From Escherichia coli 042 (lineage in GTDB: Bacteria > Pseudomonadota > Gammaproteobacteria > Enterobacterales > Enterobacteriaceae): a stretch of DNA of 64,000 bases. This document shows positions 1 through 23,104 of this stretch, one piece after another (the first letter of the stretch is position 1; every line of letters begins with the position of its first letter). The stretch lies in assembly GCF_000027125.1 (NCBI RefSeq), contig NC_017626.1; one strand, given 5' to 3'. The notes below the pieces were generated by a model that saw only the letters and a list, made by a program, of their open reading frames with translations, did no database searches and had not been told where the DNA came from. The position numbers were made by a program, and so were the translations under genes.

Positions 1-435
1 CGCCAGACCCGTCGCCGGGCGGGGCCGCTACAAGCCGTCACACAAATCGTCGCTGTCGTGGGCATCGCATTGTGTGTCGCCAGCTTTCTGTTGAAAACGC
101 ACCAGCTACTGCTGTTTTACCCGGTAGTGGTTAACGCGATCATGCTGGCGGTTTTTGGCGGTTCGCTGTGGTCGACAATGCCGATAGTTGAGCGGCTGGC
201 ACGTTTGCAGGAGCCAGACCTCCCGGAAAAGGGCGTGCGCTATACCCGCCGTGTCACGCAAATCTGGTGCGGCTTTTTCATCATTAACGGCGGAATTGCC
301 CTCTTTACCGCGCTTTATGGCGATATGTCGTTATGGACCGCCTGGAACGGCATGATTGCTTATTTTTTGATGGGAACGTTAATGGCAGGTGAATGGCTGG
401 TGCGCCGTCAGGTGATAAAAAGAGATCGCTCATGA
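1..435 (+). CDS. Small integral membrane protein of the APE cluster, probably 5'-truncated by the window edge (first in-window ATG at 58)
   Basis: Frame 1 is open from base 1 with no stop; the translation shows an arginine-rich stretch followed by hydrophobic helices; stop overlaps the next gene start (ATGA at 432-435). Position corresponds to apeG in the described ape gene order. Confidence 0.5.
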   Translation, partial: RQTRRRAGPLQAVTQIVAVVGIALCVASFLLKTHQLLLFYPVVVNAIMLAVFGGSLWSTMPIVERLARLQEPDLPEKGVRYTRRVTQIWCGFFIINGGIALFTALYGDMSLWTAWNGMIAYFLMGTLMAGEWLVRRQVIKRDRS

Positions 436-1793
436 AGCAGACCTTACCGCTTGCACGCTGGCTGACTGCGCCACGCCCTGATGACACGCCCATTGCGTGG
501 CTGGACGAAAGCTCGTGGACACTGGGCGATTTGCGTCACGATGTCGCGCAACTTATCTGCCGCTTGCAGCAACAGCCGGGTGAACGCTGGGCGCTGTGCT
601 TTGAGAACAGTTATTTGTTTATCGTTGCCCTGCTTGCCACGCTACACGCCGGAAAAACGCCGGTGCTTCCGGGGCATAACCGTGTCATCCAGCTTAATGA
701 ACAACGTGAACTGTTCGATGGTGTACTTAGCGACAGCGATCTTAACTGGCAAGGTTCATTGCTGTTGGTAGCAAGTTCCCCACAAGTCGCGACACAATCA
801 TTCACCTTTGCCGCTATAGCGCCAGACGCTTATATCGAGCTATTTACCTCCGGTTCTACGGGGCAGCCAAAGCGGGTAATTAAACCTGTTCATTTGCTGG
901 ACCGTGAAGCAGAACTGCTGGCTGAACGATTAGGCGCACGTCTTGCCGGATGTCGTGTCGTCGGTTCCGTATTGCCGCAGCATCTGTACGGCCTGACTTT
1001 TCGCGTTTTCCTGCCAATGGCGCTGGGATTACCGCTGCACGCCGCCATGCTCTGGTATGTCGAACAGTTTGCCGCATTGAGTCACCAGCATCGCTATATC
1101 TTCATCAGCAGCCCGGCATTTTTGAAACGGCTGGATACCCAGCTTTCTCCGCCGCCCGTTCAGGTGCTTCTCTCTGCTGGCGGTGAGCTGCCGTGGCAGG
1201 ACGTAAAACACACCGCGAGCTGGCTGCGCGTCTGGCCTGATGAAATCTACGGCAGCACGGAAACCGGCGTCATTGCCTGGCGTTACCGCGAACAAGAGCA
1301 ACGCCGCTGGCTGCCCTTTCCAGGTATGCACTTCCAGGCCGAAGGTGAAGCATTTCGTCTCTTTTCACCGCTGATAGCGGAAGATAACGGCCTGTTACTC
1401 GATGATCTCTTGCAGTTTAGCCAGGACGGTCAGTTCCATCTGATGGGGCGTCGTGGGCGCATCGTTAAGATTGAAGAAAAACGTATGTCTCTGCAGGAAG
1501 TAGAACAACGTCTGCTGGCGCTGGACGGCATTCGCGAGGCGGCGGCAGTTCCCGTTACGCGCGGCGGGCGTCAGAGCATCGGCGTTTTGCTGGTGCTGGA
1601 TGACGAAGCTCGCCTGCAATGGCAGAACGGCGGCGGGCATAGCCAGGAAATGACCTGGCGGCGATTACTGCGCCCGACGCTGGAGCCAGTTGCTATTCCG
1701 CGTTACTGGCGCGTTATTGATGAAATGCCAGTAAACAGTATGAACAAGCGTGTCTATGCGCAATTACAGGAGTTATTTCATGAAGCCCCATGA
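432..1793 (+). CDS. apeH: AMP-dependent synthetase/ligase (acyl-ACP synthetase-like starter activating enzyme) of the APE cluster
   Basis: ORF 393-1793; likely start ATG 432 (MKQTLPL). Contains the adenylate-forming motif FTSGSTGQPKRV. Gene order matches the described ape cluster. Confidence 0.75.
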   Translation: MKQTLPLARWLTAPRPDDTPIAWLDESSWTLGDLRHDVAQLICRLQQQPGERWALCFENSYLFIVALLATLHAGKTPVLPGHNRVIQLNEQRELFDGVLSDSDLNWQGSLLLVASSPQVATQSFTFAAIAPDAYIELFTSGSTGQPKRVIKPVHLLDREAELLAERLGARLAGCRVVGSVLPQHLYGLTFRVFLPMALGLPLHAAMLWYVEQFAALSHQHRYIFISSPAFLKRLDTQLSPPPVQVLLSAGGELPWQDVKHTASWLRVWPDEIYGSTETGVIAWRYREQEQRRWLPFPGMHFQAEGEAFRLFSPLIAEDNGLLLDDLLQFSQDGQFHLMGRRGRIVKIEEKRMSLQEVEQRLLALDGIREAAAVPVTRGGRQSIGVLLVLDDEARLQWQNGGGHSQEMTWRRLLRPTLEPVAIPRYWRVIDEMPVNSMNKRVYAQLQELFHEAP

Positions 1794-2133
1794 AATCGAG
1801 CGCCATCAGGCACAAGCGAATCACCTTGAGATTGTTTTGCATCTCAGGGCAGATCTGTTCTGGTTTCGCGGCCATTTTGCCGTGCAGCCGTTACTCCCAG
1901 GAGTTGCACAAATCGACTGGGCGATGAGCTACGCGCTCACTCTGCTCGCGCCTGGCTGGCGTTTTCACTCTATTCAGAACATCAAATTCCAGTCCCCGTT
2001 GCTGCCGGACAACCGCGTCACGCTCACGCTTAACTGGCAGGAAGAACGCCAGATTCTGAGCTTTAGCTATCAGCGTCACGACGGTGACGCCCGCCACACC
2101 GCCAGTAGCGGGAAGATCCGCCTATGTCGGTAA
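1780..2133 (+). CDS. apeI: Hotdog-fold 3-hydroxyacyl-ACP dehydratase-like protein (FabZ/FabA-like)
   Basis: ORF 1750-2133; probable start ATG 1780 (MKPHEIERH) overlapping upstream stop. FabZ-like motif FRGHFAVQPLLPGVAQIDW. Confidence 0.65.
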   Translation: MKPHEIERHQAQANHLEIVLHLRADLFWFRGHFAVQPLLPGVAQIDWAMSYALTLLAPGWRFHSIQNIKFQSPLLPDNRVTLTLNWQEERQILSFSYQRHDGDARHTASSGKIRLCR

Positions 2134-3800
2134 ACTTTTCTCCCTGCGTGTTGATCCCCTGCTACAACCACGGCGCGATGATGCCGGGCGTGCTGGCGCG
2201 TCTTAAGCCATTTAATCTGCCCTGTATTGTAGTGGATGACGGCAGCGATGCCGCCACGCAACAGCAACTGGATAATCTGGTTGCCGAACAGCCTGGCGTG
2301 ACCTTAATTCGCCTGGCAGAAAACGCAGGCAAAGGCGCGGCAGTGATGCGTGGCTTACAGGCAGCGGCAGACGCGGGCTTCAGCCATGCGGTGCAGGTGG
2401 ATGCTGACGGTCAGCACGCGATTGAAGACATCCCTAAACTGCTGGCACTCGCTGAACAGCAGCCTGCGGCGCTGATCTCCGGCCAGCCGATTTACGATGA
2501 CTCCATCCCCCGCTCACGGCTGTACGGGCGCTGGGTCACCCACGTGTGGGTATGGATCGAAACGCTCTCCCTGCAACTGAAAGACAGTATGTGCGGCTTT
2601 CGCGTTTATCCGGTTGCGCCAACGCTGCAACTGGCAAAATACGCTACCATCGGCAAGCGGATGGATTTTGACACCGAAGTGATGGTGCGCCTCTACTGGC
2701 AGGGAAATACCAGTTATTTCGTGCCGACCCGCGTCACCTATCCGCTGGACGGGCTTTCGCATTTTGATGCCCTGAAAGATAACGTCCGCATCTCGCTGAT
2801 GCACACACGTCTGTTTTTCGGCATGTTGCCGCGTATTCCTTCACTGCTGATGCGCCACTCTTCCAGCCACTGGGCGCGGCAGAGCGAAGTGAAAGGGTTA
2901 TGGGGAATGCGCCTGATGCTGCTGGTCTGGCGTCTGCTGGGAAGAACTGCGTTTACCGCGCTGCTTTACCCGGTGGTGGGCGTCTACTGGCTCACCGCTG
3001 CTCGTGCACGTAAAGCGTCGCAAGACTGGCTCGCCCGTGTGCGCCAACAACAACCACAGGCAGCAAAACTCAACAGCTATCAGCATTTTCTACGTTTCGG
3101 CAACGCCATGCTCGACAAAATCGCCAGCTGGCGCGGCGAGCTGCAACTCGGGCGTGATGTGCTGTTTGCACCAGGCGCAGAAGCGGCACTTAACGTCAGC
3201 GATCCGCGCGGCAAATTGCTGCTGGCCTCGCATCTTGGCGATGTGGAAGTGTGCCGGGCGCTGGCAAAAATTCAGGGCTACAAAACCATTAACGCGCTGG
3301 TGTTTAGCGAAAACGCCCAACGCTTTAAACAGATAATGCAGGAGATGGCCCCGCAGGCAGGCATCAACCTGCTCCCGGTAACAGATATCGGCCCGGAAAC
3401 CGCCATCCTGCTGAAAGAGAAGCTGGATAACGGCGAATGGGTGGCGATTGTCGGTGACCGCATCGCCGTCAACCCGCAACGCGGCGGCGACTGGCGCGTC
3501 TGCTGGAGTCCGTTTATGGGCCAGCCTGCGCCTTTCCCACAGGGGCCGTTTATTCTTGCGTCTATTTTGCGCTGCCCGGTGAATCTGATTTTCGCCCTGC
3601 GCCAGCACGGCAAGCTGCATATTCACTGCGAAACCTTTGCCGACCCGCTGCTGTTGCCGCGTGGCGAACGCCAGCAGGCGCTGCAAAACGCTATCGATCA
3701 TTACGCCGCGCGTCTGGAACATTACGCGCTCCAGTCGCCCCTCGACTGGTTTAATTTTTTCGATTTCTGGCAACTGCCGGAAGTCCAGGACAAGGAGTAA
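2124..3800 (+). CDS. apeJ: Fused family-2 glycosyltransferase / lysophospholipid-type acyltransferase
   Basis: 558 aa ORF; N-terminal GT2-like region (CVLIPCYNHG ... IVVDDGSDA), long C-terminal acyltransferase-like domain. Confidence 0.75.
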   Translation: MSVNFSPCVLIPCYNHGAMMPGVLARLKPFNLPCIVVDDGSDAATQQQLDNLVAEQPGVTLIRLAENAGKGAAVMRGLQAAADAGFSHAVQVDADGQHAIEDIPKLLALAEQQPAALISGQPIYDDSIPRSRLYGRWVTHVWVWIETLSLQLKDSMCGFRVYPVAPTLQLAKYATIGKRMDFDTEVMVRLYWQGNTSYFVPTRVTYPLDGLSHFDALKDNVRISLMHTRLFFGMLPRIPSLLMRHSSSHWARQSEVKGLWGMRLMLLVWRLLGRTAFTALLYPVVGVYWLTAARARKASQDWLARVRQQQPQAAKLNSYQHFLRFGNAMLDKIASWRGELQLGRDVLFAPGAEAALNVSDPRGKLLLASHLGDVEVCRALAKIQGYKTINALVFSENAQRFKQIMQEMAPQAGINLLPVTDIGPETAILLKEKLDNGEWVAIVGDRIAVNPQRGGDWRVCWSPFMGQPAPFPQGPFILASILRCPVNLIFALRQHGKLHIHCETFADPLLLPRGERQQALQNAIDHYAARLEHYALQSPLDWFNFFDFWQLPEVQDKE

Positions 3801-3803
3801 AGG

Positions 3804-4226
3804 GTGCTTAACGATCCCCGATTTACCGCTGAAGTCGAGCTGACCATTCCCTTTCACGACGTCGATATGATGGGCGTGGCCTGGCACGGTAACTATTTTC
3901 GCTACTTTGAAGTGGCCCGCGAGGCGCTGCTCAACCAGTTCAATTACGGCTATCGGCAGATGAAAGAGTCCGGTTATTTGTGGCCAGTGGTCGATGCGCG
4001 GGTGAAATATCGCCACGCCCTCACCTTTGAGCAACGCATCCGCGTGCGTGCACATATCGAAGAGTTCGAAAACCGTCTGCGGATTGGCTATCAGATTTTC
4101 GATGCCGAAACGGGCAAACGCGCCACCACCGGATACACCATTCAGGTCGCGGTCGACGAGCAAAGCCGCGAACTGTGCTTTGTCAGCCCCGATATTTTGT
4201 TTGAACGCATGGGAGTCAAACCATGA
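3804..4226 (+). CDS. apeK: Hotdog-fold acyl-CoA/ACP thioesterase (4-hydroxybenzoyl-CoA thioesterase / YbgC-like)
   Basis: 140 aa ORF with GTG start; FHDVDMMGVAWHGNYFRYFEVAREALL resembles the YbgC/4HBT thioesterase core. Confidence 0.7.
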   Translation: MLNDPRFTAEVELTIPFHDVDMMGVAWHGNYFRYFEVAREALLNQFNYGYRQMKESGYLWPVVDARVKYRHALTFEQRIRVRAHIEEFENRLRIGYQIFDAETGKRATTGYTIQVAVDEQSRELCFVSPDILFERMGVKP

Positions 4227-4828
4227 AATTTTTACCACTGCTGGCGCTGCTGATTAGCCCGTTTGTGAGCGCCCTGAACCTGGACGATCTTCAGCAACGC
4301 TTTACCGAACAGCCGGTGATCCGCGCTCATTTCGATCAAACCCGGACGATTAAAGATCTGCCGCAGCCGCTACGATCTCAGGGCCAGATGTTGATCGCCC
4401 GCGACCAGGGGCTGTTGTGGGATCAAACCTCACCATTTCCCATGCAACTATTGCTGGACGATAAACGCATGGTGCAGGTGATCAACGGTCAGCCGCCGCA
4501 AATCATCACGGCAGAAAATAACCCGCAGATGTTCCAGTTTAACCACCTGCTGCGCGCGCTGTTCCAGGCCGATCGCAAAGTGCTGGAACAAAATTTCCGC
4601 GTCGAATTTGCTGACAAAGGCGAAGGCCGCTGGACACTGCGCCTGACGCCGACCACCACGCCGCTGGATAAAATTTTCAACACCATCGATCTCGCCGGGC
4701 AAACCTATCTGGAGAGCATTCAGCTTAATGATAAACAGGGCGATCGCACCGATATCGCTCTTACCCAACATCAACTGACGCCAGCGCAACTGACCGATGA
4801 CGAACGCCAACGTTTTGCCGCCCAGTAA
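4223..4828 (+). CDS. apeL: LolA-like periplasmic lipoprotein-carrier family protein
   Basis: 201 aa ORF with N-terminal signal peptide (MKFLPLLALLISPFVSALN); start overlaps apeK stop. Confidence 0.7.
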   Translation: MKFLPLLALLISPFVSALNLDDLQQRFTEQPVIRAHFDQTRTIKDLPQPLRSQGQMLIARDQGLLWDQTSPFPMQLLLDDKRMVQVINGQPPQIITAENNPQMFQFNHLLRALFQADRKVLEQNFRVEFADKGEGRWTLRLTPTTTPLDKIFNTIDLAGQTYLESIQLNDKQGDRTDIALTQHQLTPAQLTDDERQRFAAQ

Positions 4829-7115
4829 ACGCCCGGCGCTGTTATGGGGGATCGTCTGCCTGGTCATGGCGGCGGCGTTGCTGATCCTGTTGCCGCAATC
4901 ACGACTGAACAGTAGCGTGCTGGCTATGTTACCCAAACAGGCGATGGGCGATATTCCTCCAGCGCTGAATGACGGCTTTATGCAGCGTCTGGACCGCCAA
5001 CTGGTGTGGCTGGTCAGCCCCGGTAAAGAGGCTAATCCCAGGGTGGCTCAGGAGTGGCTGACGCTGCTGCAAAAATCCGCTGCGCTCGGCGACGTTAAAG
5101 GGCCAATGGATGCCGCCAGCCAGCAGGCGTGGGGAGCGTTTTTCTGGCAGCACCGCAACGGCCTGGTTGACCCCGACACCCGCGCGCGCCTGCAAAACGG
5201 CGGCGAAGCGCAGGCGCAGTGGATCCTCTCCCAGCTTTATTCTGCGTTCTCCGGGGTAAGCGGTAAGGAGCTGCAAAACGATCCGCTGATGTTAATGCGT
5301 GGCTCGCAGCTGGCGATGGCGAAAAACGGCCAGCGTTTGCGGCTGATGGACGGCTGGCTGGTGACGCAGGATCCCCAGGGCAACTACTGGTATCTGCTGC
5401 ACGGCGAACTGGCGGGATCGTCGTTTGATATGCAGCAAACCCACCAGCTCATCACGACCCTGAATACGCTGGAAAAGGATCTGAAAACGCGTTACCCGCA
5501 GGCGCAGTTGCTCTCGCGCGGCACGGTGTTTTACAGCGATTACGCCAGCCAACAGGCGAAGCAGGATATCTCCAACCTGGGCGTGGCAACGCTGCTGGGG
5601 GTGATATTACTGATTGTGGCGGTGTTCCGCTCTTTACGCCCATTGCTGCTTTGCGTGATTTCCATCGGCATCGGCGCGCTGGCGGGAACGGTCGCCACCT
5701 TGTTGATTTTCGGCGAATTACACCTGATGACGCTGGTGATGAGCATGAGCGTTATCGGCATTTCCGCTGACTACACGCTCTATTACCTCACCGAGCGGAT
5801 GGTGCACGGCAATGACGTTTCGCCGTGGCAAAGCCTGGCGAAAGTGCGCAATGCCCTGCTGCTGGCGCTGCTCACCACCGTGGCGGCGTATCTGATTATG
5901 ATGCTCGCCCCCTTCCCCGGCATTCGCCAGATGGCGATTTTTGCCGCCGTCGGGTTGAGCGCCTCCTGTCTGACCGTCCTGTTCTGGCATCCGTGGCTGT
6001 GCCGTGGCCTGCCGGTGCGTCCGGTTCCGGCGATGGCGCTGATGCTGCGCTGGCTGGCTGCGTGGCGGCGTAATAAAAAACTGTCGCTGGGTCTGCCCGT
6101 CGCGCTGGCGCTGTTTTCGCTGGCGGGGATGTCAATGCTGCGCGTCGACGACGATATCTCGCAGTTACAGGCGCTACCGCAGCATATTCTGGCCCAGGAG
6201 AAAGCCATTACCGCCCTGACCGGACAAAGCGTCGATCAAAAATGGTTTGTAGTTTACGGCGACTCTCCACAGCAAACATTGCGGCGGCTGGAGAAATTTA
6301 CCGCCTCGCTGGAGAATGCGAAAAAAGAGGGGCTTATCAGCAACTACCGCACCATTCCGCTGAACTCCCTGGCGCGGCAGGAGGAAGATTTACATCTGCT
6401 GAAAACGGCTGCCCCGACAGTAACAAAAGCACTGCAAAATGCCGGGCTGGCGGCAGTGAATCCGGATCTCAACGCCATGCCAGTGAAGGTCGATGAATGG
6501 CTGGCAAGCCCCGCCAGTGAAGGCTGGCGTCTGCTGTGGCTGACGCTGAAAAACGGCGAAAGCGGCGTACTGGTGCCGGTTGAAGGGGTTAAAAGTAGCG
6601 CGTTGTTGCAGGAAATCGCCAGCGATTACCCTGGCGGCATTGCCTGGGTTGATCGCAAAAGCACCTTTGATGAGTTGTTCGCACTTTACCGCTACGTCTT
6701 AACCGGTTTGTTGCTGGTGGCGCTGGCGGTGATTGCCTGCGGCGCAGTGGCCCGCCTCGGCTGGCGCAAAGGGCTTATCAGCCTGGTGCCTTCGGTACTT
6801 TCGCTGGGCTGCGGTCTGGCAGTGCTGGCGATGAGCGGGCAGGCGGTGAATCTCTTTTCGCTACTGGCGCTGGTGCTGGTGCTTGGCATCGGCATCAATT
6901 ACACGCTGTTTTTCAGTAATCCGCGCGGTACACCGTTAACTTCCCTACTGGCGATCACGCTGGCAATGCTCACCACCTTGCTGGCGCTGGGAATGCTGGT
7001 ATTCAGCGCCACCCAGGCCATCAGCAGTTTTGGCATTGTGCTGGTGAGCGGTATTTTCACCGCCTTCCTGCTTTCGCCGCTGGCTATGCCCGATAAAAAG
7101 AGAACAAAAAAATGA
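4797..7115 (+). CDS. apeM: MMPL/RND-superfamily membrane exporter
   Basis: 772 aa ORF with two blocks of multiple hydrophobic helices separated by large soluble domains (RND/MMPL topology). Confidence 0.75.
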   Translation: MTNANVLPPSKRPALLWGIVCLVMAAALLILLPQSRLNSSVLAMLPKQAMGDIPPALNDGFMQRLDRQLVWLVSPGKEANPRVAQEWLTLLQKSAALGDVKGPMDAASQQAWGAFFWQHRNGLVDPDTRARLQNGGEAQAQWILSQLYSAFSGVSGKELQNDPLMLMRGSQLAMAKNGQRLRLMDGWLVTQDPQGNYWYLLHGELAGSSFDMQQTHQLITTLNTLEKDLKTRYPQAQLLSRGTVFYSDYASQQAKQDISNLGVATLLGVILLIVAVFRSLRPLLLCVISIGIGALAGTVATLLIFGELHLMTLVMSMSVIGISADYTLYYLTERMVHGNDVSPWQSLAKVRNALLLALLTTVAAYLIMMLAPFPGIRQMAIFAAVGLSASCLTVLFWHPWLCRGLPVRPVPAMALMLRWLAAWRRNKKLSLGLPVALALFSLAGMSMLRVDDDISQLQALPQHILAQEKAITALTGQSVDQKWFVVYGDSPQQTLRRLEKFTASLENAKKEGLISNYRTIPLNSLARQEEDLHLLKTAAPTVTKALQNAGLAAVNPDLNAMPVKVDEWLASPASEGWRLLWLTLKNGESGVLVPVEGVKSSALLQEIASDYPGGIAWVDRKSTFDELFALYRYVLTGLLLVALAVIACGAVARLGWRKGLISLVPSVLSLGCGLAVLAMSGQAVNLFSLLALVLVLGIGINYTLFFSNPRGTPLTSLLAITLAMLTTLLALGMLVFSATQAISSFGIVLVSGIFTAFLLSPLAMPDKKRTKK

Positions 7116-7696
7116 TCAAACCCACATTCTGGCGAGCGTTCGCCCTGACCGCTACGCTTATCCTCACCGGCTGTAGCCACTCGCAACCGGAACAGGAAGG
7201 TCGCCCACAGGCGTGGCTGCAACCTGGCACGCGCATCACGCTGCCGGCACCAGGGATTTCGCCCGCCGTTAATTCCCAGCAACTATTGAGCGGCAGCTTC
7301 AACGGCAAAACCCAGTCTCTGCTAGTGATGCTTAACGCCGACGACCAGAAAATCACCCTTGCCGGGCTGTCGTCGGTCGGCATTCGTCTGTTTCTGGTGA
7401 CCTACGATGCGCAAGGGCTACGCGCCGAGCAATCCATCGTCGTCCCACAGTTGCCGCCCGCAAGTCAGGTGCTGGCTGACGTGATGCTTAGCCACTGGCC
7501 GATTAGCGCCTGGCAACCGCAACTCCCCGCTGGATGGACGCTTCGCGACAACGGTGACAAACGCGAACTGCGTAACGCCAGCGGCAAACTGGTCACGGAA
7601 ATCACCTATCTGAATCGCCAGGGAAAACGCGTGCCAATCAGCATTGAACAGCATGTCTTTAAATACCACATCACCATTCAATATTTAGGTGACTGA
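7112..7696 (+). CDS. apeN: Lipoprotein of unknown function (APE-cluster)
   Basis: 194 aa ORF; signal peptide with lipobox LILTGC; start overlaps apeM stop. Confidence 0.65.
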   Translation: MIKPTFWRAFALTATLILTGCSHSQPEQEGRPQAWLQPGTRITLPAPGISPAVNSQQLLSGSFNGKTQSLLVMLNADDQKITLAGLSSVGIRLFLVTYDAQGLRAEQSIVVPQLPPASQVLADVMLSHWPISAWQPQLPAGWTLRDNGDKRELRNASGKLVTEITYLNRQGKRVPISIEQHVFKYHITIQYLGD

Positions 7697-7697
7697 T

Positions 7698-8867
7698 ATG
7701 ATTTACATTTCCGCCGTCGGCATGATCAACGCCCTGGGAAATAACCTTGACGATATCGCAGCCAACCTGACTCGCGGTGTCGCTCCCGGCATGCGCCCGC
7801 GCGCAGGCTGGTTGCAGGGGCATCCGCAGGCGGTCCTGGCTGGCGTGGATGGCGAGCTTCCGGTTATCCCGGAAAAATTCGCTGCGCACCGCTCGCGCAA
7901 CAATCAGATCCTGCTGGCGGCGCTGGCGCAGATCCAGCCGCAGGTTGATGACGCTATTGCGAAATATGGCCGCGAGCGCATCGCGATTGTGCTTGGCACC
8001 AGCACCTCCGGCCTGCATGAAGGCGACACGCACGTTAACCTGCGCACCCACGGGCAGCCGAGCACCACGTGGCACTATGCACAACAAGAGCTCGGCGATC
8101 CGTCGCGTTTTCTCAGCCACTGGCTGGCGCTCGACGGCCCAGCTTATACCCTTTCAACCGCCTGCTCCTCCAGTGCCAGAGCGATGATCAGCGGGCGCAG
8201 GCTTATCGAGGCGGGGCTGGTCGATGCCGCCATTGTGGGTGGTGCAGACACCCTGAGCCGAATGCCGATTAACGGTTTTCACAGCCTCGAATCGCTCTCG
8301 CCAACCTTATGTCAGCCGTTTGGTCGTGACCGCGCGGGCATCACCATTGGCGAAGGTGCGGGGCTGATGCTGTTGACCCGCGAACCGCAGCCCATCGCCT
8401 TGCTGGGCGTCGGTGAATCGAGCGACGCTTATCATATTTCGGCCCCGCATCCACAGGGCGAAGGCGCAATTCGCGCCATTAACCAGGCGCTGGCTGATGC
8501 GCAGCTTACGCCGGATGAGGTGGGCTATATCAACCTGCACGGCACCGCCACACAACTCAACGACCAGATTGAATCGATGGTGGTAAACGCCCTGTTTGGC
8601 GAACGCGTACCGTGCAGCTCCACCAAACATTTGACCGGACACACGCTGGGCGCAGCGGGCATTACCGAAGCGGCAATCAGTATGTTGATCTTAGAGCGTG
8701 ATTTACCGCTGCCCGCTCAGGACTTCAGCCTGTCGCCGCGCGATCCCACGCTGCCACCGTGCGGCATTATCGAACAACCACAGCCGCTGGCACGTCCGGT
8801 GATCCTGTCCAATTCCTTCGCCTTTGGCGGCAATAACGCCAGCATTCTGCTCGGGAGGGTTTCGTGA
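7698..8867 (+). CDS. apeO: Beta-ketoacyl-ACP synthase (KS) of APE cluster
   Basis: ORF 7689-8867; ATG at 7698 follows upstream stop (7694-7696). Active-site-Cys context TLSTACSSS and HGTAT motif, thiolase fold. Confidence 0.8.
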   Translation: MIYISAVGMINALGNNLDDIAANLTRGVAPGMRPRAGWLQGHPQAVLAGVDGELPVIPEKFAAHRSRNNQILLAALAQIQPQVDDAIAKYGRERIAIVLGTSTSGLHEGDTHVNLRTHGQPSTTWHYAQQELGDPSRFLSHWLALDGPAYTLSTACSSSARAMISGRRLIEAGLVDAAIVGGADTLSRMPINGFHSLESLSPTLCQPFGRDRAGITIGEGAGLMLLTREPQPIALLGVGESSDAYHISAPHPQGEGAIRAINQALADAQLTPDEVGYINLHGTATQLNDQIESMVVNALFGERVPCSSTKHLTGHTLGAAGITEAAISMLILERDLPLPAQDFSLSPRDPTLPPCGIIEQPQPLARPVILSNSFAFGGNNASILLGRVS

Positions 8868-9328
8868 GCCACTATTTATCCCCCGGCGCTTATCTGCCCC
8901 ACGACGCGCCCATGTTACTGCTGGAAGAAGTGGTGAGCGTCAGCGATGACAGCGCGGTGTGCCGTGTAACGGTCTCGCCCAGTGGCGTACTGGCACCGTT
9001 TCTCGACCCGGACGGCAATCTCCCTGGCTGGTTTGCCCTTGAATTGATGGCGCAAACCGTCGGCGTCTGGTCTGGCTGGCATCGCCACCAGCAGGGCAAA
9101 AACAGTATTGAGTTAGGGATGGTACTGGGCGCACGTGAATTGCTTTGCGCCGCTGGCATTCTGCCCGCAGGCCAGACGCTGACCATTACCGTCAAACTCC
9201 TGATGCAAGACGATCGCTTCGGCAGTTTTGAGTGCAGCATCAACAACGGCACGGCAACGGGCCGCATTAACACCTTCCAGCCGACCGCGGAAGAACTTAC
9301 CACCCTGTTTCAACAAGGAGCGTCCTGA
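8864..9328 (+). CDS. apeP: Hotdog-fold dehydratase (FabA/FabZ-like)
   Basis: 154 aa ORF, GTG start overlapping apeO stop; LPHDAPMLLLEEV N-terminus typical of hotdog dehydratases. Confidence 0.65.
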   Translation: MSHYLSPGAYLPHDAPMLLLEEVVSVSDDSAVCRVTVSPSGVLAPFLDPDGNLPGWFALELMAQTVGVWSGWHRHQQGKNSIELGMVLGARELLCAAGILPAGQTLTITVKLLMQDDRFGSFECSINNGTATGRINTFQPTAEELTTLFQQGAS

Positions 9329-10059
9329 TGAGTCGTTCAGTTCTGGTTACTGGTGCCAGCAAAGGCATTGGTCGCGCCATCGCCTGCCAACTGGCGGCAG
9401 ACGGCTTTAATATTGGCGTTCACTATCACCGTGACGCCACAGGCGCTCAGGAAACGCTAAATGCCATTGTCGCCAACGGGGGTAACGGGCGTTTGCTCAG
9501 TTTCGACGTCGCAAACCGCGAACAGTGTCGGGAAGTGCTGGAGCACGAAATCGCGCAAAACGGTGCCTGGTACGGCGTGGTTAGTAACGCCGGGATCGCC
9601 CGCGATGCCGCTTTTCCGGCTTTAAGCGATGACGACTGGGATGCGGTGATCCACACCAATCTCGACAGTTTCTACAACGTTATTCAGCCGTGCATTATGC
9701 CGATGATCGGCACACGCCAGGGTGGACGCATCATCACGCTGTCCTCGGTTTCCGGCGTGATGGGCAATCGCGGACAGGTGAACTACAGCGCTGCCAAAGC
9801 CGGAATTATCGGCGCAACAAAAGCACTGGCTATCGAACTCGCGAAGCGCAAAATCACCGTCAACTGCATCGCGCCGGGGCTTATTGATACCGGGATGATC
9901 GAAATGGAAGAGAGCGCCCTGAAAGAGGCAATGTCGATGATCCCCATGAAACGCATGGGCCAGGCGGAAGAAGTTGCCGGGCTTGCCAGCTATTTAATGT
10001 CTGATATTGCGGGTTACGTCACCCGCCAGGTTATTTCCATCAACGGAGGGATGTTATGA
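9328..10059 (+). CDS. apeQ: 3-oxoacyl-ACP reductase (FabG-like SDR)
   Basis: 243 aa; Rossmann motif VLVTGASKGIGRAIA, catalytic YSAAK, NAG motif. Confidence 0.85.
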   Translation: MSRSVLVTGASKGIGRAIACQLAADGFNIGVHYHRDATGAQETLNAIVANGGNGRLLSFDVANREQCREVLEHEIAQNGAWYGVVSNAGIARDAAFPALSDDDWDAVIHTNLDSFYNVIQPCIMPMIGTRQGGRIITLSSVSGVMGNRGQVNYSAAKAGIIGATKALAIELAKRKITVNCIAPGLIDTGMIEMEESALKEAMSMIPMKRMGQAEEVAGLASYLMSDIAGYVTRQVISINGGML

Positions 10060-11285
10060 CACGTCGCGTAGTGATTACAGGAATGGGCGGCGTGACTGCC
10101 TTTGGTGAAAACTGGCAGGACGTTTCCGCGCGTCTGCTGGCGTATGAGAATGCAGTGCGCAAAATGCCGGAGTGGCAGGTCTACGATGGTCTGCACACCC
10201 TGCTTGGCGCGCCTGTTGATGATTTCACGCTACCGGAGCACTACACCCGCAAGCGTATCCGTGCGATGGGCCGCGTGTCGCAAATGTCGACCCGTGCCAG
10301 CGAGCTGGCGTTAGAGCAGGCAGGATTGATTGGCGATCCGATATTAACCAGCGGCGAAACGGGCATTGCGTACGGTTCATCGACCGGCAGTACCGGTCCG
10401 GTGAGCGAATTTGCCACCATGCTGACGGAAAAGCACACCAATAACATCACCGGCACCACCTATGTACAGATGATGCCGCACACCACCGCCGTTAATACCG
10501 GTCTGTTTTTCGGCCTGCGCGGGCGGGTGATCCCGACCTCCAGCGCCTGTACCTCCGGCAGCCAGGCGATCGGTTATGCGTGGGAAGCCATTCGCCACGG
10601 TTATCAAACGGTGATGGTTGCTGGTGGTGCCGAAGAGTTATGCCCTTCAGAAGCAGCGGTATTTGATACACTTTTCGCCACCAGCCAGCACAATGATGCG
10701 CCGAAAACCACACCTTCACCGTTCGATGAAAACCGCGACGGGCTGGTGATTGGTGAAGGCGCAGGTACGCTGATTCTTGAAGAACTGGAGCACGCCAAAG
10801 CGCGCGGCGCGACCATTTACGGTGAAATCGTCGGCTTTGCGACTAACTGCGACGCGGCACATATTACCCAGCCTCAGCGTGAGACCATGCAATATTGTAT
10901 GGAAAAATCGTTAAAAATCGCCGGGTTAAGTGCAAGTGATATCGGCTATATTTCGGCGCATGGTACGGCGACCGATCGTGGTGATATGGCAGAAAGTCTG
11001 GCGACAGCAACCATTTACGGTGATAATGTGCCGCTCTCCTCGCTGAAAAGTTATTTTGGTCATACGCTTGGTGCCTGTGGCGCGCTCGAAGCCTGGATGA
11101 GTCTGCAAATGATGCGCGAAGGTTGGTTTGCGCCTACGCTAAACCTGAATAAACCAGACCCGAACTGTGGCGCGCTGGATTACATCATGCATGAAGCCCG
11201 CAAGGTTGATTGTGAGTTTTTGCAGAGTAACAACTTTGCCTTTGGCGGCATTAATACATCCATCATCATTAAACGTTGGCCCTGA
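10056..11285 (+). CDS. apeR: Beta-ketoacyl-ACP synthase I/II-like (FabB/FabF family)
   Basis: 409 aa; active-site Cys context SSACTSGSQAIG, HGTAT and GHTLGACGA motifs. Confidence 0.85.
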   Translation: MTRRVVITGMGGVTAFGENWQDVSARLLAYENAVRKMPEWQVYDGLHTLLGAPVDDFTLPEHYTRKRIRAMGRVSQMSTRASELALEQAGLIGDPILTSGETGIAYGSSTGSTGPVSEFATMLTEKHTNNITGTTYVQMMPHTTAVNTGLFFGLRGRVIPTSSACTSGSQAIGYAWEAIRHGYQTVMVAGGAEELCPSEAAVFDTLFATSQHNDAPKTTPSPFDENRDGLVIGEGAGTLILEELEHAKARGATIYGEIVGFATNCDAAHITQPQRETMQYCMEKSLKIAGLSASDIGYISAHGTATDRGDMAESLATATIYGDNVPLSSLKSYFGHTLGACGALEAWMSLQMMREGWFAPTLNLNKPDPNCGALDYIMHEARKVDCEFLQSNNFAFGGINTSIIIKRWP

Positions 11286-11286
11286 T

Positions 11287-11874
11287 ATGTATCGGATAGT
11301 TCTGGGGAAAGTTTCGACCTTAAGCGCAGCTCCACTGCCACCGGCTTTACGCGATCAAGCACCGCAAGGTCCACGACGCGAACGCTGGCTGGCGGGGCGT
11401 GCATTACTTTCGCACACGCTTTCCCCGCTACCGGAGATCATCTATGGCGAACAAGGCAAACCGGCATTCGCGCCGGAAACGCCGCTATGGTTCAACTTAA
11501 GCCATAGCGGTGACGATATCGCCCTGCTGTTGAGCGATGAAGGCGAAGTCGGCTGCGATATCGAAGTGATTCGCCCGCGCGCCAACTGGCGCTGGCTGGC
11601 GAACGCCGTGTTCAGCCTCGGGGAACACGCTGAGATGGACGCCGTGCATCCCGATCAGCAACTGGAAATGTTCTGGCGCATCTGGACGCGCAAAGAAGCC
11701 ATCGTTAAACAGCGTGGCGGCAGCGCCTGGCAAATCGTCAGCGTAGACAGCACCTATCACTCATCACTGTCAGTCAGCCATTGTCAGCTAGAAAATTTAA
11801 GCCTGGCGATCTGCACCCCTACCCCCTTTACGCTCTCCGCCGACAGTGTGCAATGGATCGATTCAGTTAACTGA
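11287..11874 (+). CDS. acpT: 4'-phosphopantetheinyl transferase AcpT
   Basis: ORF 11167-11874; ATG 11287 gives a 195 aa product (MYRIVLGKVSTLSAAPLP...) matching E. coli AcpT as recalled; immediately downstream of the ape genes. Confidence 0.85.
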   Translation: MYRIVLGKVSTLSAAPLPPALRDQAPQGPRRERWLAGRALLSHTLSPLPEIIYGEQGKPAFAPETPLWFNLSHSGDDIALLLSDEGEVGCDIEVIRPRANWRWLANAVFSLGEHAEMDAVHPDQQLEMFWRIWTRKEAIVKQRGGSAWQIVSVDSTYHSSLSVSHCQLENLSLAICTPTPFTLSADSVQWIDSVN

Positions 11875-11898
11875 TCCGCCCACCCGACTGCCCATCTA

Positions 11899-11912
11899 TT
11901 GATCCAGAACAG
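11899..11912 (+). promoter_or_regulatory. FNR-like half-palindrome (TTGAT-N4-AACAG) upstream of nikA
   Basis: ttgatccagaacag read in the acpT-nikA intergenic region; nik is known to be anaerobically induced via FNR. Imperfect match. Confidence 0.3.
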
Positions 11913-11919
11913 GTAATCA

Positions 11920-11947
11920 GTATGACGAATACTTAAAATCGTCATAC
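11920..11947 (+). promoter_or_regulatory. NikR operator (GTATGA-N16-TCATAC)
   Basis: Exact dyad gtatga cgaatacttaaaatcg tcatac read directly, about 40 bp upstream of the nikA start; matches the known NikR recognition pattern. Confidence 0.8.
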
Positions 11948-11984
11948 TTATTTCCGCCATCTATTTTAATCCATTGGGGTTACC

Positions 11985-13559
11985 ATGTTCTCTACACTCC
12001 GCCGCACTCTATTTGCGCTGCTGGCTTGTGCGTCTTTTATCGTCCATGCCGCTGCACCAGATGAAATCACCACCGCCTGGCCGGTGAATGTCGGGCCACT
12101 AAACCCGCACCTTTACACGCCTAACCAGATGTTCGCCCAGAGCATGGTTTATGAACCATTGGTGAAATATCAGGCAGACGGTTCGGTGATCCCGTGGCTG
12201 GCAAAAAGCTGGACCCATTCGGAAGATGGCAAAACCTGGACCTTCACCCTGCGTGATGACGTGAAATTCTCCAACGGCGAACCGTTTGATGCAGAGGCGG
12301 CGGCAGAAAACTTCCGCGCAGTGCTCGATAACCGTCAACGTCACGCCTGGCTGGAGCTGGCAAACCAGATTGTTGATGTCAAAGCACTCAGTAAAACAGA
12401 GCTGCAAATCACCCTGAAAAGCGCCTACTATCCTTTCCTGCAAGAACTGGCCCTGCCACGCCCTTTCCGTTTTATCGCCCCCTCGCAGTTTAAAAACCAT
12501 GAAACCATGAACGGAATTAAAGCGCCGATTGGCACCGGGCCGTGGGTTTTGCAGGAATCGAAACTGAATCAGTACGATGTCTTCGTCCGTAACGAAAACT
12601 ACTGGGGCGAAAAGCCGGCGATTAAGAAGATCACTTTTAACGTGATCCCGGACCCGACTACCCGCGCGGTGGCGTTTGAAACTGGCGATATTGACCTGCT
12701 GTACGGAAACGAAGGGTTATTACCGCTCGATACCTTCGCCCGCTTTAGCCAGAACCCGGCTTACCACACCCAACTGTCACAGCCGATCGAAACCGTGATG
12801 CTGGCGCTCAATACCGCCAAAGCCCCCACCAACGAGCTGGCAGTACGTGAAGCTCTTAATTACGCGGTAAACAAAAAATCGCTGATTGATAACGCGTTGT
12901 ATGGCACCCAGCAGGTCGCCGACACCCTGTTTGCTCCTTCTGTGCCCTATGCCAACCTCGGCCTGAAACCGCGCCAGTACGATCCGCAGAAAGCGAAAGC
13001 GTTGCTGGAAAAAGCCGGTTGGACGTTGCCTGCGGGCAAAGACATCCGCGAGAAAAATGGTCAGCCGCTGCGCATTGAACTGTCGTTCATCGGCACCGAT
13101 GCGTTAAGCAAATCGATGGCGGAAATCATTCAGGCTGATATGCGCCAGATTGGCGCAGATGTCTCACTGATTGGCGAAGAAGAGAGCAGTATCTATGCTC
13201 GTCAGCGCGACGGTCGTTTTGGCATGATTTTCCATCGCACCTGGGGCGCGCCATACGATCCACACGCCTTCCTGAGTTCAATGCGCGTACCGTCGCACGC
13301 TGATTTCCAGGCACAGCAAGGATTAGCCGACAAGCCGCTGATTGATAAAGAGATCGGCGAAGTGCTGGCAACCCATGACGAAACGCAACGTCAGGCGCTG
13401 TATCGCGACATTCTGACCCGTCTGCATGACGAGGCGGTTTATCTGCCTATCAGTTACATCTCAATGATGGTGGTATCAAAACCGGAGCTGGGTAACATCC
13501 CCTACGCGCCGATCGCCACCGAAATTCCGTTCGAACAGATTAAACCGGTGAAACCTTAA
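11985..13559 (+). CDS. nikA: Periplasmic nickel-binding protein NikA
   Basis: 524 aa ORF with signal peptide; family-5 solute-binding protein; first gene of the nik operon. Confidence 0.95.
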
Positions 13560-17504: not shown

Positions 17505-18251
17505 ATGAAATCATTGAGTAAGTCGTCACAAATACCGCTCTATCAACAAGTGGTGGAGTGGATAAGAGAAAATATTTATACCGGGGATCTGGTGGAAGAC
17601 GATCGCATTCCTTCGGAATACCAGATTATGGATATGCTGGAAGTGAGTCGGGGAACCGTTAAAAAAGCTGTCGCCCAACTGGTAAAACAAGGCGTGTTGA
17701 TTCAGGTCCAGGGGAAGGGAACATTTGTCAAAAAAGAGAACGTGGCATATCCGTTAGGTGAAGGATTATTGTCATTCGCGGAATCGCTGGAAAGCCAGAA
17801 AATACACTTTACCACTGAAGTTATTACGTCACGGATTGAACCGGCTAATCGTTATGTGGCAGAGAAATTAAGAATAACGCCCGGTCAGGATATTCTTTAC
17901 CTTGAGCGTTTACGTTCAATTGGTGATGAAAAAGCGATGCTGATAGAGAACCGTATCAATATTGAGCTATGCCCCGGCATCGTGGAAATCGATTTTAATC
18001 AACACAATTTATTTCCAACAATAGAAAGTTTGTCGAAAAGAAAAATTCGTTACTCGGAAAGTCGCTATGCCGCGCGATTAATTGGTAATGAACGCGGTCA
18101 TTTTTTAGATATCTGTGAAGATGCACCCGTTTTGCATCTGGAGCAATTAGTCTTTTTCTCCCGAGAGTTACCCGTTGAGTTTGGCAACGTCTGGTTAAAA
18201 GGAAATAAATATTATCTGGGCACCGTGCTGCAACGGCGGGAATTGAGTTAA
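17505..18251 (+). CDS. GntR-family transcriptional regulator (HTH + UTRA effector domain)
   Basis: ORF 17496-18251; HTH segment EYQIMDMLEVSRGTVKKAVAQLVKQGVL; precedes the PTS genes. Confidence 0.75.
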   Translation: MKSLSKSSQIPLYQQVVEWIRENIYTGDLVEDDRIPSEYQIMDMLEVSRGTVKKAVAQLVKQGVLIQVQGKGTFVKKENVAYPLGEGLLSFAESLESQKIHFTTEVITSRIEPANRYVAEKLRITPGQDILYLERLRSIGDEKAMLIENRINIELCPGIVEIDFNQHNLFPTIESLSKRKIRYSESRYAARLIGNERGHFLDICEDAPVLHLEQLVFFSRELPVEFGNVWLKGNKYYLGTVLQRRELS

Positions 18252-18275
18252 ATACACTTTTTTATGAGGAATAAA

Positions 18276-18749
18276 ATGCAAGGCATACAGTTTCAGGAAA
18301 ATTATATTCAACGACTTCCGGCAGGGTTAAGCGTTGAACAGATCATCCGTCAGTTAGCGCAACCGTTGGTTGCTGCTGAGCTGGTGGTCCCTGATTTTGC
18401 CGATCACGTACTGAAACGTGAGGCGACGTACCCAACGGGGCTGCCTACCGAACCACCGTGCGTCGCCATTCCGCACACGGACCATAAATATGTCAGGCAC
18501 AATGCAATTGCCGTCGGCATCCTTCCGGAACCGGTAGAGTTTGCCGATATGGGCGGCGATCCTGACCCCGTACATGTCAGGGTGATTTTTTTGCTCGCCT
18601 TAAGTGAAAGTAATAAACAATTAAATGCCCTGGGCTGGATTATGGAGATGATTCAGGATACGCCCTTTATGCGCGCCCTGCTTACGATGGAAACAACAGA
18701 AATACACACAGTAATCTTAAACAAAATGAAAGAACGAGGTGAAATATGA
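18276..18749 (+). CDS. PTS EIIA component (fructose/mannitol/galactitol type)
   Basis: ORF 18264-18749; ATG 18276 has a GAGGA RBS; phosphorylatable His context AIPHTDH. Confidence 0.75.
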   Translation: MQGIQFQENYIQRLPAGLSVEQIIRQLAQPLVAAELVVPDFADHVLKREATYPTGLPTEPPCVAIPHTDHKYVRHNAIAVGILPEPVEFADMGGDPDPVHVRVIFLLALSESNKQLNALGWIMEMIQDTPFMRALLTMETTEIHTVILNKMKERGEI

Positions 18750-19027
18750 GTCAAACCATTTTATTTGTCTGCGCCACGGGTATAGCCACATCCACGGCGG
18801 TAACAGAAAAAGTCATGGAATATTGTAAAGAGCACGGTCTTAACGTCAATTATTCCCAAACCAACGTTGCCTCTTTACCTGGAAATACTGACGGCGTAGC
18901 ACTGGTAGTCTCAACGACTAAAGTGCCTTATGAACTCGACGTCCCGGTGGTTAACGGCTTGCCGATTATTACCGGTATTGGCGAAGAGAAAGTACTGGCG
19001 CAAATTGTTTCGATCCTTAAAAAGTAA
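18746..19027 (+). CDS. PTS EIIB component (galactitol type, Cys-phosphorylated)
   Basis: 93 aa; N-terminal ILFVCATGIATS motif typical of GatB-like EIIB. Confidence 0.8.
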   Translation: MSQTILFVCATGIATSTAVTEKVMEYCKEHGLNVNYSQTNVASLPGNTDGVALVVSTTKVPYELDVPVVNGLPIITGIGEEKVLAQIVSILKK

Positions 19028-19103
19028 TTAATAATAATTAATTTCAACCCACTCCATCAGGCGCTAACGCGAGGTGCGCTCTCGCCTGAAAAAGAGGTTT
19101 ATT

Positions 19104-21963: not shown

Positions 21964-22222
21964 AACCGTGGAGGTCAGAAACAGTACTGGCCTGCATGCA
22001 CGTCCGGCGGCGTGTCTGGTGAAAGCCGCCAAAAAGTTTAGCTGTAAAGTGACGCTGCATTATGAGGGTAATGATATTAATGCCACCAGCATGATGAATA
22101 TTATGCGCGCCGGAATAAAAGGCGGCAAAACGGTGGAAATACGCTGCGAAGGCGATGATGAAAATGAGGCAATACAAACTCTCACCGCCTTATTTCGTGA
22201 TCGCTTCGGTGAAGCTGAATAA
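21953..22222 (+). CDS. HPr-like phosphocarrier protein paralog
   Basis: 89 aa; GLHARPAA motif containing the phosphorylatable His of HPr-family proteins. Confidence 0.75.
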   Translation: MLSKTVEVRNSTGLHARPAACLVKAAKKFSCKVTLHYEGNDINATSMMNIMRAGIKGGKTVEIRCEGDDENEAIQTLTALFRDRFGEAE

Positions 22223-22252
22223 TTAACTGATATTAAAAGATGAGGTTTTCAA

Positions 22253-23104
22253 ATGCCATTAGTTAATGGACGGATACTGCTCGACCGCATTCAGGAAAAA
22301 CGGGTATTAGCGGGCGCGTTTAATACCACCAATCTGGAGACGACGATTTCAATTTTAAACGCCATTGAGCGTTCAGGATTACCCAACTTCATTCAGATTG
22401 CGCCCACCAATGCACAACTCTCGGGATACGATTACATTTATGAAATCGTGAAACGTCACGCCGATAAAATGGATGTTCCGGTCAGTCTTCATCTGGATCA
22501 CGGGAAAACTCAGGAGGATGTTAAACAGGCGGTGCGCGCGGGCTTTACCTCGGTCATGATTGACGGTGCCGCATTATCTTTTGAAGAGAATATCGCTTTC
22601 ACCCAGGAAGCTGTCGATTTCTGTAAATCCTATGGCGTACCGGTTGAAGCGGAGCTGGGGGCGATTCTCGGCAAAGAAGATGATCACGTCAGCGAAGCCG
22701 ATTGCAAAACGGAACCGGAAAAGGTGAAGACCTTTGTCGAGCGCACCGGTTGCGACATGCTGGCAGTTTCTATTGGCAACGTTCATGGCCTGGACGATAT
22801 ACCGCGTATCGATATCCCCCTGCTGAAGCGCATTGCCGAAGTCTGCCCGGTGCCGCTGGTTATTCACGGCGGCTCCGGTATCGCCCCGGAAATATTACGC
22901 AGCTTTGTTAATTATCGCGTCGCTAAAGTAAATATCGCCAGCGATCTGCGCAAAGCGTTTATCACCGCCGTCGGCAAAGCGTATGTGAATAATCACAACG
23001 AGGCGAATCTGGCACGAGTGATGGCATCAGCAAAAAACGCCGTCGAGGAAGATGTGTATAGCAAAATCCTGATGATGAATGAGGGGCATCGGTTGGTTAA
23101 GTAA
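22253..23104 (+). CDS. Class II ketose-bisphosphate aldolase (GatY/KbaY/fructose-bisphosphate aldolase family)
   Basis: 283 aa; HLDHG zinc-binding motif, family-typical length. Confidence 0.8.
   Translation: MPLVNGRILLDRIQEKRVLAGAFNTTNLETTISILNAIERSGLPNFIQIAPTNAQLSGYDYIYEIVKRHADKMDVPVSLHLDHGKTQEDVKQAVRAGFTSVMIDGAALSFEENIAFTQEAVDFCKSYGVPVEAELGAILGKEDDHVSEADCKTEPEKVKTFVERTGCDMLAVSIGNVHGLDDIPRIDIPLLKRIAEVCPVPLVIHGGSGIAPEILRSFVNYRVAKVNIASDLRKAFITAVGKAYVNNHNEANLARVMASAKNAVEEDVYSKILMMNEGHRLVK

Follow-up and report, generated by a model that had tools for sequence, protein, structure and literature searches.

Positions 1–11285 of the window, by which we mean the whole 64,000-nucleotide stretch of Escherichia coli 042 DNA analysed here (contig NC_017626.1), almost certainly comprise the distal 12 of the 18 genes of the E. 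coli aryl polyene (APE) lipid cluster, lying at its native site between yhhT and acpT and with acpT as terminal gene. The cluster is already known, having been described in E. coli CFT073 and in Xenorhabdus, and a 2006 publication linked it to AcpT in O157:H7; as judged from sequence comparison, the window cluster is of this O157:H7 type, the one described with AcpT. By analogy with the literature, from which substrates, product and physiological role are taken, it would produce a yellow membrane aryl-polyene lipid.

Gene array and protein families

The region consists of 12 tightly packed, co-directional genes on the + strand, from a partial apeG to apeR, followed by acpT:

1..435, +, apeG, COG4648 membrane protein (3' 144 of 193 codons; 5' end outside the window)
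432..1793, +, apeH, predicted adenylating enzyme for aryl starter loading (FTSGSTGQPK motif; 4-coumarate-CoA ligase match)
1780..2133, +, apeI, hotdog dehydratase (Pfam ApeI-like PF22818)
2124..3800, +, apeJ, fusion of GT2 and PatA/LpxM-type acyltransferase (PF00535, profile, fold)
3804..4226, +, apeK, 4HBT/YbgC-type thioesterase (TIGR00051)
4223..4828, +, apeL, periplasmic LolA-like carrier (TIGR00547, flexirubin LolA2)
4797..7115, +, apeM, MMPL/RND-superfamily inner-membrane exporter (HAE3, HpnN, MMPL matches)
7112..7696, +, apeN, DUF3261 lipoprotein, LolB-like (lipobox; DUF3261 annotation of homologues)
7698..8867, +, apeO, elongating ketosynthase (NF006618; active-site motifs)
8864..9328, +, apeP, hotdog dehydratase (Pfam ApeP-like PF22817)
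9328..10059, +, apeQ, FabG2-type ketoreductase (TIGR01831)
10056..11285, +, apeR, initiating ketosynthase (NF006587; active-site motifs)
11287..11874, +, acpT, Sfp-type 4'-phosphopantetheinyl transferase (NF007676)
300..2100, +, block diverging from CFT073: apeG 3' end, apeH, apeI (sliding-window nucleotide identity)
11266..11286, +, deletion-scar stretch: final ~20 nt of apeR and the spacer base (persists 5' of acpT in cluster-less E. coli)

Nine of the 11 ape-ape junctions overlap, by 1–32 nt, and the other two are gaps of 1 and 3 nt; the apeR stop is separated from the acpT start by a single nucleotide (TGAtATG). All of the window ape genes are intact except apeG, which is cut by the window edge. 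The initial annotation had described these as twelve co-directional, mostly coupled genes making up the distal two-thirds of the cluster, running from apeG to apeR and followed immediately by AcpT. The arrangement is as described, and content and order agree gene for gene with Table 1 of Johnston et al. 2021 (PMC8253772); 'two-thirds' is correct by gene count (12 of 18), while the share by length is ~75% and the first gene is incomplete. Because a sequence scan of the region gave no promoter or terminator signals exceeding chance, we infer operon structure from gene packing, and by its tight terminal juxtaposition acpT would in effect be the last gene of the ape unit.

Every function named in the initial annotation is supported by a family model, a motif or a fold. 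In NCBIfam searches the two ketosynthases exceed their family cut-offs (ApeR, 777 bits to NF006587, cut-off 470; ApeO, 557 bits to NF006618, cut-off 407), and each has its active-site cysteine (Cys156 in a TAC context in ApeO, Cys165 in SAC in ApeR) followed by two histidine motifs (His246 and His281; His269 and His302). The FabG-like reductase ApeQ scores 474 bits to FabG2 TIGR01831 (cut-off 339), and AcpT has a full-length, equivalog-level match to NF007676 (395.5 bits, cut-off 174). The hotdog dehydratases match the dedicated Pfam families, ApeI over its full length (PF22818, 1.6e-40) and ApeP at 4.3e-41 (PF22817), while the thioesterase ApeK resembles YbgC/FadM enzymes (TIGR00051, 1.3e-16). 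ApeH carries the AMP-binding core motif FTSGSTGQPK at residues 138–147; its top NCBIfam match is 4-coumarate-CoA ligase (3e-24, under the cut-off of that family), a homologue contains Pfam AMP-binding, and it is predicted to be an aryl-acid adenylating enzyme.

The export module comprises the MMPL/RND protein ApeM, the LolA-like ApeL and the DUF3261 lipoprotein ApeN. ApeL has a signal-like N-terminus and matches both LolA TIGR00547 (1.5e-16) and flexirubin LolA2 (6.5e-15). ApeM is similar to HAE3, HpnN and MMPL transporters and is annotated as an MMPL family transporter in the near-identical genome of E. coli CB6837, and ApeN has an LTGC lipobox at residues 18–21, with counterparts in CB6837 and C. 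rodentium annotated DUF3261. ApeG matched no NCBIfam family above threshold, and neither for it nor for ApeN did the searches find a family model with known function; the CB6837 counterpart of apeG (L001 11854-12435) is annotated 'COG4648 family protein'.

Upstream genes and the deletion in K-12

CB6837 is identical at 12,499 of 12,500 compared bases (1 difference), and upstream of the window it contains yhhT and apeA, followed by genes for a methyltransferase, for a chain-length factor, for a lysophospholipid acyltransferase and for two carrier proteins, as well as the 5' portion of apeG. The initial annotation had placed the carrier proteins and remaining genes upstream, and this is where they lie; the case it named as refuting its reading, upstream DNA without ACPs and a CLF partner, is thereby excluded. 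ApeC, annotated 'beta-ketoacyl synthase chain length factor', occupies L001 9814-10536 outside the window, and PF13723 is present in its C. rodentium homologue. Likewise outside the window, ApeE and ApeF, the two carrier proteins, are encoded in tandem (L001 11329-11586 and 11598-11849), and both contain the DSID serine motif.

In K-12 the site consists of yhhT, 54 nt and acpT, and the cluster is therefore absent there, as had been stated. CATTAAACGTTGGCCCTGAT-ATG precedes acpT in K-12 and CFT073 alike, and among the matches listed every genome with no cluster at this site begins matching at query base 481, equivalent to window position 11267. In K-12 the last 20 nt of apeR remain before acpT, the mark of a deletion.

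ApeJ and the proposed route to APE lipid

ApeJ is a two-domain protein. Residues 8–130 form a GT2 domain (PF00535, 9e-20), and in NCBIfam the best match is to PpgS, a polyprenyl-phospho-GalNAc synthase. Profile, motif and predicted (AF2) fold together identify the C-terminal ~320 residues as a PatA/LpxM-type acyltransferase, a domain that occurs both on its own (~310 aa) and in fusions (~560 aa). In a Pfam search PF03279 is not detected in E. coli ApeJ itself; in an alignment of 71 sequences, comprising the ApeJ C-terminus and 70 stand-alone homologues, 62 match this family (best 3.9e-19), and the family profile matches LpxM (5KN7) at 2.6e-7. SHLGDVE at ApeJ 369–375 aligns with the catalytic HFGTWE of LpxM, an H-x4-E motif, and its His and Gly are invariant in 71/71 sequences. 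The AF2 model (pLDDT 88.8) has PatA or LpxM as all of its best 14 PDB folds in Foldseek (E ~1e-10, probability 1.00, target-normalised TM 0.56–0.71).

The ApeJ C-terminus thus has its fold and catalytic motif in common with the mycobacterial PIM acyltransferase PatA, which acylates a sugar 6-OH, and with the lipid A secondary acyltransferase LpxM, although sequence identity is only 15–19%. Unlike these, the ApeJ domain is fused to GT2, and it presumably takes its acyl group from an aryl polyene bound to ACP; ApeJ has been proposed to act on GalNAc as PatA does on its sugar (bioRxiv 10.1101/2020.12.19.423268).

These same likenesses, of the C-terminal domain to lipid A secondary acyltransferases and of the GT2 domain to polyprenyl-phosphate glycosyltransferases, would suit the alternative that the initial annotation itself raised, in which the genes serve some other fatty-acid-like pathway, for instance modification of lipid A or of O-antigen lipid, but we give this next to no credence: a chain-length factor, two carrier proteins and a methyltransferase are present upstream, the dedicated ApeI-like and ApeP-like Pfam families match at 1e-40, and the genes are colinear with the APE-producing CFT073 cluster, most proteins being 94–100% identical. 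In practice such a pathway is refuted by the genes found upstream and by how nearly identical the genes are to that characterised cluster.

For an APE lipid, the steps can be drawn from homologous clusters; mechanism and lipid structure come from work on Xenorhabdus doucetiae, and the structure and the roles of ApeJ and ApeD are given in bioRxiv 10.1101/2020.12.19.423268. AcpT would add phosphopantetheine to ApeE and ApeF, and ApeH would adenylate an aryl acid (4-hydroxybenzoate, as in Xenorhabdus) for loading on a carrier protein. ApeR would then carry out the first condensation, after which ApeO and its chain-length factor ApeC, together with ApeQ as reductase and ApeI and ApeP as dehydratases, would extend the chain with malonyl units into the conjugated polyene, with ring methylation by ApeB. 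ApeD and ApeJ would build the lipid anchor, the GT2 half of ApeJ providing GalNAc-phosphate chemistry and the PatA/LpxM-like half joining polyene and sugar through an ester. ApeK may serve to release intermediates or to proofread them, and transport to the outer membrane would fall to ApeG, ApeM, ApeL and ApeN; there the lipid would protect against oxidative stress and support biofilm formation. Since APE lipids have these two effects in Gram-negatives, the intact cluster is a modest fitness and virulence marker here.

Two E. coli cluster types and related systems

Among 5,426 complete E. coli genomes, 569 have the acpT-linked type and about 250–260 the CFT073-type island cluster; the former accounts for about two-thirds of APE-positive complete genomes. 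The CFT073 APE_Ec cluster (c1186-c1204; Cimermancic 2014, Johnston 2021 PMC8253772) agrees with it in all 18 genes and in their order, again with reading frames that overlap, and 14 of the 18 proteins are 94–100% identical to those of the window type (e.g. ApeK 100%, ApeR 99%), in contrast to ApeA (64%), ApeG (82%), ApeH (67%) and ApeI (72%). Whereas the window copy adjoins acpT, the CFT073 copy is on an island flanked by an integrase, about 2.9 Mb away from acpT, and stops exactly at the apeR stop, without a PPTase gene; the native yhhT-acpT site of CFT073 carries the K-12-type deletion scar. It is this island copy, not the acpT-linked one, that has been characterised chemically and genetically in E. 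coli, a point missed in the initial annotation. APE production was shown by heterologous expression, and deletion phenotypes are reported (PMC8253772).

Because the CFT073 cluster differs substantially in ApeH, ApeI, ApeA and ApeG, we can only infer the identity of the product of the window copy. The different lineage of its loading enzyme and dehydratase raises the possibility of an aryl-polyene lipid chemically distinct from that of CFT073 (e.g. in aryl starter, methylation or chain length), which we nevertheless consider improbable. The divergent block is sharply bounded, at about 300 and 2100: within it nucleotide identity to CFT073 is 58–76%, and the block is closer to C. rodentium, while apeJ-apeR is 88–100% identical (mostly 92–100%); moreover the two apeH types divide E. 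coli genomes 566 to 259, in step with the two chromosomal locations. However, ApeH is the fastest-diverging ape gene between genera too, at 67–75% in every pairing, and yet Xenorhabdus and CFT073 make an identical 4-hydroxy-3-methylphenyl hexaene chromophore (bioRxiv 10.1101/2020.12.19.423268); the two E. coli types also share 94–99% identity in the chain-length factor, the ketosynthases and the methyltransferase. We regard as similarly doubtful a reading in which the acpT-linked cluster represents the ancestral form in enterobacteria and may differ from the island copy in what it makes or loads, its starter-loading block (apeH-apeI, with apeA and the apeG 3' end) deriving from a lineage no closer than another genus. 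If true, there would be two functionally distinct E. coli APE systems divided by lineage, with O157, O145 and the group of 042 on one side and CFT073 and Nissle on the other.

An APE lipid cluster could also be intact in 042 but silent under ordinary conditions, contributing little to phenotype. The Xenorhabdus counterpart is silent in the laboratory and required an inserted promoter (bioRxiv 10.1101/2020.12.19.423268), a 2026 CFT073 study compared wild type with a constitutive expresser and reported induction under chronic oxidative stress, and strong sigma-70 promoter-like sites were not found within the window part of the cluster. Against this, none of the genes is disrupted and the set is conserved at the acpT-linked locus in 569 genomes, which argues for selection, and we think silence rather unlikely, though well short of negligible.

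Among the closest known systems is also the O157:H7 cluster, which occupies the same position beside acpT in a different E. coli lineage a few percent diverged in nucleotide sequence (97.4% identity at the apeR-acpT junction, 94.9% in apeH). The cluster of the O157 lineage was identified as APE by antiSMASH (PMC9205054), and AcpT is reported to modify both carrier proteins of the O157:H7 cluster (De Lay and Cronan 2006, as cited in PMC8253772). Citrobacter rodentium has the same yhhT-apeA..apeR-acpT order and the same apeR-acpT junction, Klebsiella huaxiensis shares the yhhT-ape arrangement, and the ape cluster of Xenorhabdus doucetiae (Grammbitter 2019, 2020), from another genus, is alike in its apeA-R nomenclature and functions. 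Results from the experimental model CFT073 are usually extrapolated to all E. coli, whereas the majority type has a clearly diverged loading enzyme and an immediately downstream, co-oriented PPTase gene.

The ape cluster, its upstream genes and acpT

The window is E. coli chromosome, and its bases 1-12500 are 100.0% identical to several complete genomes. Twelve + strand genes, the distal part of the aryl-polyene (APE) cluster, occupy the whole of 1-11285; they and acpT are laid out as follows.

Features of the ape-acpT region (window coordinates, strand, gene)
ends at 435, +, apeG (3' 144 of 193 codons)
432-1793, +, apeH
1780-2133, +, apeI
2124-3800, +, apeJ
3804-4226, +, apeK
4223-4828, +, apeL
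4797-7115, +, apeM
7112-7696, +, apeN
7698-8867, +, apeO
8864-9328, +, apeP
9328-10059, +, apeQ
10056-11285, +, apeR
11287-11874, acpT, with nikABCDE-nikR as its 3' neighbours

Nine of the eleven ape junctions are overlaps of 1-32 nt and the remaining two are gaps of 1 and 3 nt; the apeR stop and the acpT start are one base apart (junction TGAtATG). All these reading frames are intact, with lengths equal to those of the copies in other genomes. In a consensus scan of 1-12500 for promoters and terminators, promoter-like sites were less frequent than in shuffled sequence and the only terminator-like hairpins were weak ones located inside genes; the scan is uninformative as to transcription units.

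The initial annotation had proposed that these genes belong to an APE cluster whose carrier proteins and other missing members should lie upstream of the window. In CB6837, an E. coli genome differing from window 1-12500 by one base, the 12 kb 5' of the window carry yhhS and yhhT, and an AT-rich spacer of 391 nt then separates yhhT from the lipoprotein gene apeA. Next come genes for a methyltransferase, a chain-length factor, a lysophospholipid acyltransferase and two carrier proteins, and last the 5' part of apeG. The predicted carrier proteins and the chain-length factor are therefore both present, and the APE interpretation is supported: the genes match one by one those listed for APE_Ec, the characterised cluster of strain CFT073, in Table 1 of Johnston et al. 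2021 (PMC8253772). The same upstream gene content rules out an O-antigen or lipid-modification pathway. The spacer between yhhT and apeA (7878-8268 in the CB6837 locus, L001) has 34% GC compared to 55% for the cluster and shows no sequence relationship to the DNA 5' of apeA in CFT073; it is probably where the cluster's promoter and regulatory sequences lie.

Functions of the encoded proteins and the ApeJ fusion

Family models, motifs and predicted fold bear out the gene content originally described. ApeH carries FTSGSTGQPK at residues 138-147 and has its best family match in the 4-coumarate-CoA ligase type (NCBIfam). ApeO (557 bits) and ApeR (777 bits) each exceed the curated cut-off of a specific ketosynthase model, and in each the active-site Cys is accompanied by two His motifs. 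ApeQ is identified as FabG2 (474 bits, cut-off 339), and AcpT scores 395 bits (cut-off 174). NCBIfam gave only weak FabZ matches for ApeI and ApeP, both of which were settled by Pfam (ApeI-like and ApeP-like respectively, each at about 1e-40). Family matches identify ApeK as a YbgC/4HBT thioesterase, ApeL as LolA-like and ApeM as MMPL/HAE3-like. ApeG and ApeN had no NCBIfam match; ApeN, annotated as DUF3261, contains the lipobox LTGC. The mechanistic roles of the ape genes are taken from the CFT073 study (PMC8253772) and work on Xenorhabdus (bioRxiv 10.1101/2020.12.19.423268).

With full-length ApeJ, the sole Pfam match was a GT2 domain (residues 8-130; best NCBIfam match polyprenyl-phospho-GalNAc synthase), and a PDB sequence search likewise matched the GT2 half alone, leaving the C-terminal half without a match. 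The latter required a profile of distant homologues and a predicted structure. All homologues from an initial search were close relatives (82-97% identity), unsuited to profile building. Residues 235-558 were used as query against a representative protein library, in which the domain occurs both stand-alone (about 310 aa) and fused (about 560 aa). In an alignment of the ApeJ C-terminus with 70 stand-alone homologues (71 sequences), the His and Gly of a SHLG(D/N)xE motif and a GDR motif are invariant, and 62 of the 71 match the lipid A acyltransferase family PF03279. The profile matched Acinetobacter LpxM (5KN7) at 2.6e-7, with the motif opposite the catalytic HFGTWE, and PatA at 0.015. An AlphaFold model (pLDDT 88.8) had exclusively PatA and LpxM among its best 14 PDB folds (E about 1e-10). 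Profile and predicted fold thus uphold the GT2/acyltransferase fusion first read from the sequence, and indicate that ApeJ is a genuine fusion with a predicted acyltransferase half of PatA/LpxM type. It has been proposed that ApeJ first adds GalNAc, onto which the aryl polyene is then esterified (bioRxiv 10.1101/2020.12.19.423268). Our domain assignment is consistent with this proposal. PatA catalyses the same kind of sugar 6-O-acylation.

Other loci in the window

A seven-gene island occupies 17505-23104, in the nikR to yhhJ interval (GntR regulator, galactitol-type PTS IIA, IIB and IIC, FGGY kinase, HPr and class II aldolase). In K-12 its place is taken by rhsB-yhhH-yhhI, and CFT073 has the same island with a frameshifted kinase; the annotation of one near-identical strain gives a partial IIB gene. 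Two neighbouring paralogous DUF4049 genes (yhiJ-like, each about 530-540 aa) lie at 28484-31957 on the - strand.

The five-gene ars operon at 45854-50156 has arsD and arsA between the regulator and arsB-arsC; the K-12 operon is known to consist of arsRBC only, and CFT073 keeps arsC alone at this position. Two Rfam AgrB-family matches (45388-45472 and 45620-45703; 94 and 108 bits) adjoin the type I toxin gene dinQ (about 45030-45113), and together these look like the known agrA/agrB-dinQ locus. At 52276-53392, the closest annotated genome has a frameshifted hypothetical gene between an ArsR/SmtB-permease pair and slp. Beyond dctR, 55054-64000 holds the chu/shu heme-uptake cluster (chuS, chuA, chuT, W, X, Y, U), with a match to the Rfam shuA/chuA 5' UTR thermoregulator (58111-58142, - strand) 5' of chuA; it scores 60 bits, the gathering score being 58.

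Loss of the cluster and two cluster types in E. coli

The cluster had been described as absent from K-12 at this position, and in MG1655 yhhT is indeed followed by 54 nt and then acpT. In K-12 the final 20 nt of apeR (CATTAAACGTTGGCCCTGAT) stand directly before the acpT start codon, and CFT073, of another phylogroup, has the same scar. All genomes lacking the cluster at this site, among those listed in a junction search, begin matching at the same base. The 35-nt filler between the yhhT stop and the apeR remnant (7916-7950 in the K-12 locus, L002; 21570-21604 in the CFT073 locus, L009) shares no 14-mer with the ape cluster or with any part of the window. Citrobacter rodentium has the order yhhQ-dcrB-yhhS-yhhT-apeA..apeR-acpT with the same TGAtATG junction as the window, and Klebsiella huaxiensis has yhhT-ape with no acpT after apeR. 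From the common scar and starting base, together with gene order in these two species, we infer that the arrangement in the window is ancestral and that most E. coli lost the cluster through one shared deletion, in agreement with De Lay and Cronan 2006, as judged by its title and by its summary in PMC8253772.

The APE_Ec cluster of CFT073 (c1186-c1204), stated in PMC8253772 to yield pigment on heterologous expression, lies at a different locus (1.14-1.16 Mb), on an island that also carries an integrase and remnants of IS elements, and ends exactly at the apeR stop with no adjoining acpT. Among 5,426 complete E. coli genomes, an ape cluster occurs at any position in 821 and apeR is joined to acpT in 569, while apeH is of the window type in 566 and of the CFT073/Nissle type in 259. 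Fourteen proteins are 94-100% identical between the two types, the exceptions being ApeA (64%), ApeG (82%), ApeH (67%) and ApeI (72%); sliding-window comparison placed the second divergent block at about 300-2100 of the window. In both blocks C. rodentium is nearer to the window type than to the CFT073 type. It is improbable that the window type makes a different product from that of CFT073, since ApeH is the most variable ape gene between genera also. The APE cluster and its association with AcpT are already known, the latter having been published in 2006; to these we add the distinction of locus types, the scar common to K-12 and CFT073, and fold-level confirmation of the acyltransferase half of ApeJ.
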